From Cyanobacteria bacterium auto_48_18 (GTDB taxonomy: Bacteria > Cyanobacteriota > Vampirovibrionia > Obscuribacterales > Obscuribacteraceae), in contig JAVHQC010000011.1 in NCBI GenBank assembly GCA_036170915.1, positions 64,001 to 128,000 of the forward strand: DNA of 64,000 bases, in the 5' to 3' direction. This document shows, in pieces, positions 1-56,504 of this stretch. Within the stretch, counting starts at the first letter, position 1. Each line of letters begins with the position of its first letter. The notes under the pieces were generated by a model, which saw nothing but the letters and a program-made list of their open reading frames with translations, was not told the DNA's origin and made no database searches. The position numbers were made by a program, and so were the translations under genes.

Positions 1-1263
1 CACAGCGATGCTGACCAACTTAGAGCGAATTACGAGAAAGAGAAAATATCGCGCAAGGTTGCTGTTCTGGAAGAACGAGAAGCTTGGCTGCAGCAAGCTT
101 CCAGCGGCCCGGGACAAAAGCCGACCGACCAGGTTGAAGCTCTTACTGAATTGGCTTACCGAGCATTCGATACTCAGAAATGCGATGAGGGTCTAAAGTT
201 GCTTAAAAGCGCTGTGGATGCCTACGAGATGAACGCCGACAGTAGAGATAGTGAGCGCATGTACAACCGGTTTCTAAACATTAGTGCTCGATTGAAGAAA
301 TGTGGTCATGAGGGCGACAGTAAGGCACTTTTACTTCGAATTGTGCGCGCCAGGATAGTAGCTGGTTTTCCGGATCCTGACGGTAATCACATTACCGTTT
401 GCACAATGGGCCCTCGTCCGCTGGATGCGCTTACCGATTTGATGTATCAGAACAATTCAGATAAAAAAGCTGTGATAGATATTCTATTGGCCGATGCGAA
501 GGCTTCCTCCAAGCCGACAAGCGTCATCTATTTTATGCAGTTTTCAAATCCAATTTCTGTGGATGAGCGGGGTCTAGCAAACTTAGAAGAGATCGAAGAG
601 TGGAAAATCAAAGCAAACAATCCACCGCTTTTGTTTGCCCATATGCTGAGAATTTCAGATTGGATGATCCATTTGAATCAGTTTGACAAGGCCGCAGCAA
701 AGTGGAAACAAGCAGTAGCTCTCGCCGAGACAGCGAAAACGCAATCGCCAAAGATGCTGAACTATTCGGCAACCGTGAGACTGCAAAATGTTGGCGCAGC
801 CTTTGTTAAGAAGAATCAGATGTCTAAAGCGGCTGATGTCTATACTGTTGCTTACAAATTGGCCTTGAATGAGCCGAAAGAATATAGTGCTCAGACCATA
901 GCTAAATCGATTGACACTTTAGCATCGAAATATGTCGAGGCTGGTGACACCGCATCTGGTGAATCGCTATTGAACAGTGTGCTTGAAATCAGTAGGGCCG
1001 AGAGAGGCAGCGATAGCCTGCTTGAGCGCATGTGGCTTATCAAGCTTGCTGACTTTTTTGCCCAGCGAGGAGATAAAGCAAAAACTAAAAGTGCCTGTAG
1101 TGCTTTCTTTGACTCAATCAACAAGCCTGGCTTGACTGTTAGCGCCAGTACTATTGATGATATGAGAAAGCATCTGACAGTCTTGAAGAACTATGGCTTT
1201 TCCTCAGAGGCCTCATCGGTTGAGAAGAAATTGCACGAGCTAGACGCGCACCAGTGCAAATGA
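1..1263 (+). CDS. Helical-repeat (TPR-like) protein, 5'-truncated by window edge
   Basis: Frame 1 is open from base 1 (HSDADQLRANYEKE...) into the 151..1263 ORF; TPR-like amphipathic helices (e.g. LADFFAQRGDKAKT, VGAAFVKKNQMSKAADVY). Confidence 0.6.
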   Translation, partial: HSDADQLRANYEKEKISRKVAVLEEREAWLQQASSGPGQKPTDQVEALTELAYRAFDTQKCDEGLKLLKSAVDAYEMNADSRDSERMYNRFLNISARLKKCGHEGDSKALLLRIVRARIVAGFPDPDGNHITVCTMGPRPLDALTDLMYQNNSDKKAVIDILLADAKASSKPTSVIYFMQFSNPISVDERGLANLEEIEEWKIKANNPPLLFAHMLRISDWMIHLNQFDKAAAKWKQAVALAETAKTQSPKMLNYSATVRLQNVGAAFVKKNQMSKAADVYTVAYKLALNEPKEYSAQTIAKSIDTLASKYVEAGDTASGESLLNSVLEISRAERGSDSLLERMWLIKLADFFAQRGDKAKTKSACSAFFDSINKPGLTVSASTIDDMRKHLTVLKNYGFSSEASSVEKKLHELDAHQCK

Positions 1264-1287
1264 GTATCGGTCGCGTCCCGCTAGCTG

Positions 1288-3696
<2,409 letters not shown>

Positions 3697-3954
3697 TCAT
3701 CAACTAATCAATTGTAGAAGATTCTTTGTGGTCCTTCCACCACATTTTTCAATTTTGCGGCTCATTACTAGAATGTCAATGTATGGTTCTTTGCGTGCTT
3801 TGAAATTGCTCATGCGTTTGAGGGCACCACATGTAGTGCGGAGCCTGGCCGATCACCGATTCGGTAGAAAGTAAAGAACCTCACAGCAATCTAACGCTGA
3901 TATTTGTATTGTCTTTGTTGTGACCACTTACCACATCAAGCAAAAGGCAGTTTC

Positions 3955-4329
3955 ATGACAAAAGCAATCGAAGATGTAAGCGACAATGCTAAACCTCAAC
4001 AGACAGATAACAATTCTGACTTGTCTGTATCACTCTGGCAGTCAATGCGAAACGAAGGCACCGTAGGCACCACCAACAACAATCGACCAGGTAGCTTTGC
4101 CATTACCGATAACAACCGCGGAGCAAATGGTAGCGAGAAAGTATTGCCTGCCATTGATTTTTTTGACTCTCAATCAGCAGAGAATTCGCCCACTGGTCCT
4201 TATAAGTTCGAGAGCGTTTCCAGTTCCTATGTAGGGAAGAGCGACGCGCAAGAGCAGATGAGAATTGAAATGAAATTTGAAAGCGTAAACAGCTCGTATG
4301 TCGGTAGCAGCGAGGACCTTTATAAATAG
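3955..4329 (+). CDS. Hypothetical low-complexity protein with duplicated KFESV(S/N)SSYVG motif
   Basis: ORF 3904..4329, ATG at 3955 preferred; internal 11-aa duplication. Confidence 0.55.
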   Translation: MTKAIEDVSDNAKPQQTDNNSDLSVSLWQSMRNEGTVGTTNNNRPGSFAITDNNRGANGSEKVLPAIDFFDSQSAENSPTGPYKFESVSSSYVGKSDAQEQMRIEMKFESVNSSYVGSSEDLYK

Positions 4330-4391
4330 CTAGTTAAATTCGTTACCGAAGAAAGGCCAAGTTTTTCTCTTTACTCTAGCGATCCTCACCC

Positions 4392-4419
4392 TTGACATAA
4401 GTGGCACGGTTGCTAGAAT
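4392..4419 (+). promoter_or_regulatory. Sigma70-type promoter of the hypothetical-rtcB-prfH operon
   Basis: TTGACA (4392-4397), 16 nt, TAGAAT (4414-4419) with extended -10 TG. Confidence 0.7.
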
Positions 4420-4451
4420 GTTTTTAGGTTCCCCCCATCTTTAGAGGTAAA

Positions 4452-4710
4452 GGTCATGTTTTCCCGAAGTACGTCGCACAGCAGCATATCGCTCTAAGGG
4501 CTCACAGCCCCTGCTTTGTACTTGGGACAAATGATCTGACGGAACTACAGCTTCTGTAATTTATCGTTGTATCCACTGCTCTGGCATCGCGCCTTGCTGC
4601 GGTAGTCAATTACGCATCCACGCGCCCGTTTAAAAAGCCTGCATCTGAGCGGCTTTGTATAACGCGCATCGTTTTTCACTTCGCTTGCAGCGGAGAGCTT
4701 TGCTGCGAGC
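4452..4710 (+). promoter_or_regulatory. Structured 5' leader (attenuator-like)
   Basis: Pairings GGTCAT..TCCCGAAGTAC / GTACTTGGGA..ATGATC, AGCAG/CTGCT, GGGCT-CAC-AGCCC, AAAGCC/GGCTTT; strong hairpin 4683-4710 directly before the GGAG SD of 4725. Confidence 0.5.
4456..4497 (+). CDS. Putative leader peptide MFSRSTSHSSISL
   Basis: GAGG/AAGG SD-like sequence upstream, ATG 4456, TAA 4495-4497; lies inside long hairpin 4452-4536 just downstream of the promoter. Confidence 0.5.
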   Translation: MFSRSTSHSSISL

Positions 4711-55072: not shown

Positions 55073-55540
55073 TTAACGACGCCAGAGCTGCCACCAGTGG
55101 CGTTTTTTCGACTTTTCCGCAGCTGCTTCCATAGTAGATTCGTCTGTTAATTCAACAGGCACGTTAGAAAGTTGCTGAAAATTGACCACAGTGTCGGCCC
55201 GCCTCGAGCTGACATTGTCGGCAGTTATTTCAAGATGATAGCGACCAGGCATGAGCTGAAACCGCGGAGTATGAAATGTAGTCTCATGCCCTTTCACATC
55301 GAAAGCTTTGACCGTCAAGTTGTGAAATGGTTTGTCGGTGGCGATATTGACGTCGCCTACATAATAAGTGCCTGCTGCCCAAACCACACCACTACCGAGC
55401 AAACCGAGCACTGGTATAGAAGTTGCCATCAGCGCCAATGTGTCTTTGGCAGTGGCAATTTTGTTGGCCCTGCTTGGCGTAACTACAGCAGGGGACAGCG
55501 TCTCTGTGGATTGTTTAACAGCGTTCATTTTCCACTCCAA
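55073..55540 (-). CDS. Hypothetical membrane-anchored protein
   Basis: One TM, beta-rich domain (LMPGRYHLEI), C-terminal KRHWWQLW. Confidence 0.6.
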   Translation of the reverse strand: MEWKMNAVKQSTETLSPAVVTPSRANKIATAKDTLALMATSIPVLGLLGSGVVWAAGTYYVGDVNIATDKPFHNLTVKAFDVKGHETTFHTPRFQLMPGRYHLEITADNVSSRRADTVVNFQQLSNVPVELTDESTMEAAAEKSKKRHWWQLWRR

Positions 55541-55695: not shown

Positions 55696-56379
55696 TTAGT
55701 GATACTGTTGAATTTGTGATGTGAAACCTTCGAGGCTTGATGAAGGACCCCCGTTGTATAGTACGTTGCCTGAGCCGTCTAAGAAAACCACTCTCGGAAT
55801 ACCGGTAACCGAATACTTTGCTGACAGTTCACCATTAGAACTGTTGTCTACATCTACTTTCTCAAAAGATACATCGGAAAATTTAGACTTGGTTGCGTCA
55901 AACACGGGCGCAAATTTTCTACATGGTGCTCACCGCTCCGCCCAGAATTCAATCACTTTCTTCACTTTGCCCATAGCAAGTTTCTGACCACCACCCGACG
56001 CTGCTGGCGCAACTGCCGCTTGCGAGCTACTGCTTGAAGATGAGTTACCTCCTGAACCGGTCAAGCGCGCTGATGAAAGTTGAGCTAAGCCGGTGGCGGC
56101 TTTAGCAGACAGATTGGCATCTCTGCTGTCTACGACCCATTTGTATTCTAGTTTTGCCTGGTCTATGCGACCAAGGGCCTGTTGGCAGAGCGCGACATAA
56201 TAGTGCACCAGAGCATTATTGGGATAACTGACCTTGAAAGCTTGAAACTCACTCAAAGCGAGGGCATATTTGCCGTTGGCATAGTCAGCCATAGCCTGCT
56301 GGAACGACGGCGCTGCCTGCACTACCGAACTTATTGAGATTGTGCAAGCTAATAGCAAACCTACTGGTAAAAATCGCAT
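55696..56379 (-). CDS. Secreted TPR + thioredoxin fusion with in-frame TGA at the catalytic position (U-A-P-C); candidate selenoprotein
   Basis: ORFs 55930..56397 and 55696..55905 are in the same frame; readthrough gives KVIEFWAER-U-APCRKFAPVFD...VDVD...YSVTGIPRVVFLD; GGAGG SD before ATG 56379. Confidence 0.8.
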
Positions 56380-56504
56380 AAAACCTCCGACATCCACAAT
56401 CGCTAGTTTCTTATACCCTCATAGCAGCCTCAGTCGATGCACTGTCTACCTGGTGTGATAGTCTTTTGCACATTAACACTCCGTTGGCTTTACAGGGATT
56501 ATTG

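Follow-up and report, generated by a model that had tools for sequence, protein, structure and literature searches.

The window, a stretch of 64,000 nucleotides, holds a minus-strand gene for a TPR-thioredoxin which, judged from its sequence and those of its relatives, is very probably a genuine selenoprotein, with selenocysteine (Sec) predicted to be inserted at an in-frame UGA. The explanation as a whole, that of a predicted exported UxxC selenoprotein likely to serve as a periplasmic thiol-disulfide reductase, is considered very probable; export to the periplasm, to which the signal-peptide pattern points, is considered probable with slightly less confidence. The host is a member of the non-photosynthetic Obscuribacterales, and the genome holding the window (G000) is a bin of 86% completeness. 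The conserved TGA, the Sec machinery, covariation in the hairpin behind the codon and purifying selection past it supported the Sec redoxin proposed by the first-pass annotation.

Reading frame, protein architecture and proposed function

Translation of 56379-55696 (-) gave 227 codons with one internal TGA (55932-55930), placed between VIEFWAER and APCRKFAPVF, and a TAA end. ORF calling divides this frame into pieces of 155 and 69 aa; the earlier view that the two minus-strand ORFs are one frame split by a single TGA was confirmed. The gene has the following features:

55696..56379 (-): full TPR-thioredoxin CDS, 227 aa, Sec as residue 150, TAA stop included (full-length homologues)
56384..56388 (-): Shine-Dalgarno-like GGAGG, 4 nt upstream of the ATG at 56379 (sequence)
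56314..56379 (-): predicted cleavable signal peptide, residues 1-22, with basic start, hydrophobic core and VQA/A-P (sequence pattern)
56071..56304 (-): TPR-like five-helix domain, residues 26-103 (AF2, alignment, weak TPR matches)
55972..56070 (-): Ser/Gly/Ala-rich flexible linker, residues 104-136 (sequence; pLDDT <50 at 108-133)
55699..55971 (-): thioredoxin-fold domain, residues 137-227, with U150-x-x-C153 and cis-Pro-position P195 (PF00085, Foldseek)
55930..55932 (-): in-frame TGA, predicted selenocysteine codon (conservation across homologues)
55921..55923 (-): codon of the resolving Cys153 (translation, alignment)
55795..55797 (-): codon of Pro195, in the G-I-P loop facing the active site (translation, alignment)

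The database protein P0121 begins at the same Met, and orthologue N-termini showed similar ALA/AP ends at the predicted cleavage site. The signal-like N-terminus, TPR-like helices and Ser/Gly linker described at first were all present in the sequence and in the AF2 model (mean pLDDT 84.3; pTM 0.46, a value to be expected of two domains on a tether). The N-terminal helical domain is TPR-like by fold and by PDB sequence matches (CDC27 TPRs, E 9e-6), though under the Pfam threshold (TPR_6, 23.3 vs. cut-off 26.3 bits, E 9e-5), and its Cys65 was nearly invariant in the alignment. The PF00085 score was 54.2 bits (cut-off 23.5) over profile positions 18-90 of 103; of the complete thioredoxin claimed earlier the core fold was present, and the first strand and helix were missing. 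The Foldseek matches listed were thioredoxins or thioredoxin fusions, and the closest folds were ordinary thioredoxins. C153 and P195 were invariant in 63 aligned sequences, in agreement with the resolving Cys and cis-Pro having been called intact. With PF00085 over its cut-off, C/UxxC, the proline at the cis-Pro position and the Trx fold, the protein belongs to the thioredoxin superfamily. The family consensus has a W-U-G-P-C site, an acidic residue equivalent in position to Asp26, and an I-P loop, which presumably resemble those of reducing thioredoxins (E. coli comparison).

The gene is flanked by a divergent M13 peptidase gene and a small unknown gene, and G003 has the same order. The small gene (window 55073-55540 (-)), directly downstream, had no Pfam match; in close relatives a kinase-like gene of ~680-710 aa, absent from G000, lies between it and the thioredoxin gene. 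Tandem TPR-thioredoxin paralogues occurred in other genera. In G000 several paralogues of the N-terminal TPR module follow signal-like starts (e.g. C22:203010, C32:28338, C29:72126, C14:9058), which suggests a lineage-expanded export or interaction module.

Signal cleavage would leave a mature TPR domain, a flexible tether and the thioredoxin core. Catalysis would begin with attack of the Sec150 selenolate on a disulfide or oxidised Cys of the substrate and end with resolution of the intermediate by Cys153; the TPR domain would likely select partner proteins. Once exported, a reductase depends on electrons passed on by the membrane, and their likeliest source would be the DsbD-like membrane protein of G000 (contig C20, 648 aa, below the DsbD family cut-off); the protein was therefore read as a periplasmic reductase. 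That it is fed by DsbD and repairs or reduces disulfides on TPR-chosen partners is modestly favoured.

A tentative and less probable account keeps Sec and replaces the DsbD-fed reductase by a periplasmic isomerase or oxidase with a TPR chaperone arm, or by a selenium-dependent switch between TPR-only and full-length products. The combination of TPR, flexible linker and thioredoxin would suit a chaperone-coupled isomerase and DsbD is not a conserved neighbour (G003 had the linkage, whereas G002, G006 and G012 lacked it), but the WUGPC consensus and I-P loop presumably match those of reducing thioredoxins, and the closest folds are ordinary thioredoxins. The protein databases carry the TGA forms as TPR-only proteins of 147-170 aa, as the switch would have it, though these are truncations by gene callers, an annotation error corrected here; in several genomes, moreover, Cys orthologues unable to make the truncated form replace the Sec form. 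The DsbD-fed periplasmic reductase is retained as the preferred function.

Conservation of the UGA and of the hairpin behind it

A search for orthologues with TGA aligned to Cys (six-frame protein search of 61 genomes) gave 30 loci with 33 genes spanning the site, where 23 had TGA, 9 Cys and 1 Ser. As the same column holds TGA in so many homologous genes and Cys in 9, the TGA is not due to chance, and the claim that the stop sits at the nucleophilic Cys of CxxC stood. The 23 TGA genes sat in 22 genomes, with identity down to 38%, and the 22 complete TGA genes of the 33-gene set continued for 73-78 codons after the UGA. Beyond the TGA, NG86 dN/dS ranged over 0.04-0.19 across 8 pairs, compared with 0.03-0.15 for the TPR part (7 computable pairs); the coding frame past the TGA is under purifying selection. 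In the G000-G006 pair dN/dS was higher downstream of the TGA (0.19) than in the TPR part (0.06). Named records with the gene were titled Obscuribacter, Obscuribacterales, Melainabacteria or uncultured cyanobacterium. The Sec and Cys forms needed 6 changes on a quick 63-row tree, at least 2 of them forced by strong branches, which hints at Sec/Cys exchange in both directions. A divergent TGA paralogue (L148, G033:C42:40702-41295; ~30% identity), with the stem diverged and the CCCGTG core kept, sat on a long branch among Cys paralogues and may have gained Sec independently.

The structure behind the UGA is:

55893..55913 (-): SECIS hairpin UUGCGCC-CGUGUUU-GACGCAA, 6 pairs plus a C-A mismatch, 7-nt loop CGUGUUU

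All TGA forms retained the block 16-37 nt past the codon. In the protein-search subset, CCCGTG at +22..27 was present in 24/24 TGA genes vs. 1/9 Cys genes, and the six stem pairs were kept in 141/144 cells (TGA) vs. 23/54 cells (Cys); CCC makes up only 17% of genome-wide Pro codons. The combined pattern of UGA and hairpin occurred in 53 of 107 Obscuribacterales genomes, with 52 belonging to the TPR-thioredoxin family, and the reversed control gave 1 hit. Some 30 of the 56 TGA genes entered the set through a search pattern that includes the hairpin, so that counts on the full set are inflated. The hairpin alignment comprised 49 of the 56 distinct TGA genes (7 with duplicate 48-mers left out), all related sequences, and the 7-pair stem was paired in 87% of their cells. 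Two-sided stem changes (U-A to C-G in 8 sequences, G-C to C-G or U-A in 8) covered 3 pairs and 17 cells; 0 of 500 shuffles had as many two-sided cells, and slid controls were far lower. TGA forms conserve the hairpin and show compensatory changes in it; in Cys forms it decays. Of the longer mRNA fold claimed earlier, the inner GCG/CGC pairs belong to the conserved hairpin (55913-55893), and the outer GAAAAUUU/AAAUUUUC stem was not conserved, pairing in TGA forms in 267/448 cells vs. 333/336 for the upper stem. It is the short upper hairpin that makes up the SECIS, in place of the longer structure.

The bSECIS consensus has a loop of 3-9 nt, a stem of 4-16 bp, G in the first two loop positions and a spacing of 16-37 nt (PMC13188914, Fig. 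2A legend), with a free energy at or below -7.5 kcal/mol (PMC13188914). The G000 hairpin agreed with the bSECIS criteria (3/4) in its loop of 7 nt, stem of 6-7 bp, G in the loop start (55905, second loop position) and loop beginning 23 nt after the UGA; its energy of -4.8 kcal/mol lay above the -7.5 threshold. Orthologues with C-G instead of the C-A mismatch reached -10.5 kcal/mol. The minimum-energy fold of 60 nt in G000 was a different structure (z -0.78). An unrelated barrel family showed a hairpin in the same register after its UGA. A weight matrix made from the Trx and barrel hairpins found only the TPR-thioredoxin gene in G000; the TGA genes on contigs C22 and C36 have different hairpins and were missed, so no one SECIS sequence holds throughout the lineage. 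A generalised hairpin pattern was dropped (4 known sites among 14 hits in 5 genomes, with controls at a similar level), and so was a coding-potential scan of TGA junctions, which was too noisy.

Sec-tRNA(Sec) would be made by SelA and SelD, and SelB, bound at the hairpin loop 23 nt downstream, would bring it to UGA 55932; the machinery genes present and the covarying hairpin point to this delivery step, along the standard bacterial route of Sec decoding (PMC9312934).

Sec machinery and readings without Sec

The tRNA-Sec of G000 scored 75.8 bits (cut-off 47), had a long variable arm and was the only UCA tRNA at default settings. Genes for selB, with the SelB wing domain, and for a Cys-type selD were present; the selD gene adjoins a gene taken to be YedF-like, with TusA and weak DsrE domains. 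The selC gene (L023:9904-10441, C16) lies between a gene for a XerC/D-like recombinase and rpoB, and G037 has the same order, with selA also nearby. Two dense tRNA arrays of G000 (C33:15652-16458 and C33:164122-165603) hold 9 genes each, with duplicate isoacceptors found elsewhere in the genome.

The search for sel genes proposed by the first-pass annotation thus found selB, selC and selD in the genome; selA was not found in the bin (86% complete). An archaeal/eukaryal route replacing SelA was rejected, with no SepSecS match in G000. Among the congeners of G000, 13 of 14 had selA; in G003, G004, G006 and G007 it is found immediately beyond the repeat that begins G000 contig C27, and the neighbours next on the selA side were likewise missing from G000. 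The selA region of G006 matched one contig of 17,496 nt in run X1, with a depth of 13.3 (window contig 12.8), which covered positions 39-4687 of that region with 381 differences and ended in the starting repeat of C27. None of the indels listed (12 of 14 shown) fell inside selA, and this unbinned selA was ~92% identical to the G006 copy. The absence of selA from G000 was read as a binning gap, the link being drawn from synteny, depth and identity.

It is very improbable that the G000 gene is decaying after loss of selA, with the UGA now a stop, or that the TGA arose through an error or through a recent nonsense mutation. Such decay would fit the absence of selA from the bin, the weak G000 hairpin and the changes D148E and W149R beside the site, private to G000 vs. 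the closest genomes; against it, the depth-matched selA contig ends at the repeat where C27 starts, selB, selD, selC and two further TGA/Cys genes of G000 are intact, and private changes downstream of the TGA numbered 4 in G000 vs. 5 in G006. The gene does not look like one in general decay. An error is opposed by the TGA being common to several genera and by run X1, in which one contig (depth 12.8) held the window and was base-identical over the gene, though it is possibly the source of the window and not independent; run X2 gave no cover of the gene. The Arg noted earlier in place of the usual Trp is real and specific to this genome: Trp precedes the site in 51/56 TGA genes, and among the Cys homologues Arg was also found in one, L043. 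Each of the three closest genomes differs at position 151. The G000 substitutions next to the Sec site may tune or impair activity.

Decoding of the UGA as Cys by a dedicated UCA tRNA, raised by the first-pass annotation as an alternative, or as Trp or Gly through an altered genetic code, would accord with the Cys of homologues and with database entry P0133, translated with W at the TGA position, and is still the least credible reading, since the sole UCA tRNA passes the Rfam cut-off for tRNA-Sec and has a long variable arm, TGA is a normal stop in this genome (it ends 384 of 1451 G000 frames of at least 400 codons) and the TGA form tracks the Sec genes across genomes.

Insertion of Sec remains the preferred reading. 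In the order, selA was found in 86/107 genomes; 47 of the 52 genomes with a TGA thioredoxin had selA and the other five had tRNA-Sec, and six genomes of at least 90% completeness had neither selA nor the UGA-hairpin pattern (kin are not independent, and no P value is given). G026 and G031 had only Cys thioredoxin forms and lacked selA, tRNA-Sec and the SelB wing; G031 and G095 had SelW-like genes without TGA. Two TGA genomes (G014 and G017) gave no tRNA-Sec match, but had selA and selD. In G040, which gave no selD match, selA (L204:5624-8410) lies directly behind a gene like those of FAD-dependent oxidoreductases and is possibly an orphan.

Probable Sec use in the order and phylum, and comparison with known systems

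The TPR-thioredoxin was rejected as sole selenoprotein of the lineage, as SelW-like, TlpA-like and barrel TGA genes were also present. Of the TGA families seen in the order, the SelW-like one was the most widespread (85/107 genomes, mostly with TGA); its G000 member (C36:72325-72083 (-)) is a SelW/Rdx-like gene with CGS-U-GY (CxxU) and a hairpin of -12.7 kcal/mol, and adjoins a gene that presumably resembles ferrochelatase. A Cys paralogue lies on G000 C29. G000:C22:457190-456612 (-) (L206, L209) encodes a TlpA/ResA-like redoxin, a lipoprotein, with FGNW-U-GPC; a strong hairpin with a GGUC loop follows the UGA at 25 nt. Its homologues were found in 7/107 genomes, all with TGA. The barrel family, a second candidate selenoprotein family (L113:1286-2440 (+), G022:C637; L157-L186), combines a signal peptide, A/GQG-U-xxxR and a FapF/COG4313-like outer-membrane barrel, with PF13557 in 10/51 members. 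Of the 107 genomes 58 had it, while the G000 assembly did not; all 30 loci examined had TGA, and distant homologues had Cys. In the second family of the order, a thioredoxin-like protein with a signal peptide has APT-U-LQC (L208:3287-3721 (+), G037:C91). A peroxiredoxin TGA in G030 was left uncounted, as it precedes the conserved Cys and has no clear hairpin. All 37 selD matches were without TGA. The molybdopterin Fe4S4 domain turned up in 34/107 genomes, G000 not among them. Most of the frames that carry it were long and open, and in these no Sec-FDH was evident.

In a phylum sample of 401 genomes, selA was found in 15. All 15 lacked photosystem reaction-centre genes, which 10 of 15 selA-negative controls had, and selA was found in 0/107 genomes of the eight families with a photosystem-positive member. 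In a tree of 26 rows that had no outgroup from other phyla, the SelA proteins of Obscuribacterales lay together to one side of a branch with good support. Tentatively, and with less than even confidence, the Obscuribacterales are proposed to have a Sec system, hitherto unreported and passed on vertically, in which neither Sec formate dehydrogenase nor Sec-SelD is apparent and which would serve mainly envelope proteins (TPR-thioredoxin, TlpA-like lipoprotein, outer-membrane barrel with Sec at mature residue 3) and a SelW-like protein; Sec may be ancestral in Cyanobacteriota and lost toward oxygenic phototrophs. If this is true, Sec loss would date to the origin of oxygenic photosynthesis. The distribution of selA makes the timing and cause of the cyanobacterial loss of Sec testable by phylogeny.

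Cyanobacteria are listed among lineages lacking Sec (PMC9312934). The same statement in the first-pass annotation was not contradicted for phototrophs and does not extend to the host, a non-photosynthetic member of the phylum with Sec genes; Sec use is thereby placed in non-photosynthetic sister lineages of oxygenic cyanobacteria. The passages of PMC5029168 covered mention only an orphan SelD, in Prochlorococcus. The portion of the PMC13188914 text covered has no mention of cyanobacteria, melainabacteria or tetratricopeptide, and the pages of PMC9025218 covered treat Melainabacteria thioredoxins without mention of selenium proteins. Table S1 of BSepDB (PMC13326102) has at least 18 Vampirovibrionia input genomes, with none among those listed named Obscuribacter, and the deep-Sep supplements (PMC12013277) gave no match. 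No report of Sec in Obscuribacterales was found in the full-text literature, a coverage that takes in few subscription journals.

UxxC thioredoxin (Trx, PF00085) is an experimentally verified selenoprotein class (representative WP_010956703.1; PMC13188914, Table 1), and that table names no TPR fusion. The present protein shares with bacterial selenoprotein Trx the PF00085 domain, the U-x-x-C site and a SECIS directly behind the UGA, and differs in its predicted signal peptide, TPR domain, linker and shortened thioredoxin N-terminus; its lineage is absent from the selenoprotein lists covered. Compared with classical cytoplasmic TrxA (TIGR01068), a stand-alone protein that has no signal peptide, it scored 54.4 bits vs. 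an equivalog cut-off of 96.8 and has 136 extra N-terminal residues. It is like the predicted Trx-fold subfamilies (PF13098, of thiol:disulfide interchange; SaoT NF040730; HUIPC NF047660; Trx7/PDZ NF041199; TsoB NF045694) in its Trx fold and Sec at the CxxC position, and some of these subfamilies are fusions, as it is. No cut-off of the named NCBIfam Trx-like selenoprotein families was reached, and only TsoB was listed (31.9 vs. 805).

The Cys-type TPR-thioredoxin paralogues of Obscuribacterales (e.g. G000 C22:380178-380807, P0123-P0131) have the same architecture at 32-50% identity, but have Cys for Sec and no conserved hairpin, and are intermixed with Sec forms on the tree. The protein is like the DsbD-fed redoxins TlpA, ResA and DsbE in being a likely exported thioredoxin fold, with weak HMM matches, and the TPR protein CpoB/YbgF gave a weak HMM match only; all of these fell below family cut-offs, and unlike them the present protein has no membrane anchor and has both modules fused. 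What is new is very probably a TPR-fused, likely exported architecture of the known UxxC class in a lineage for which the literature covered reports no Sec use. UxxC thioredoxin selenoproteins thereby gain an architecture, and the chemistry itself is that of the known class.
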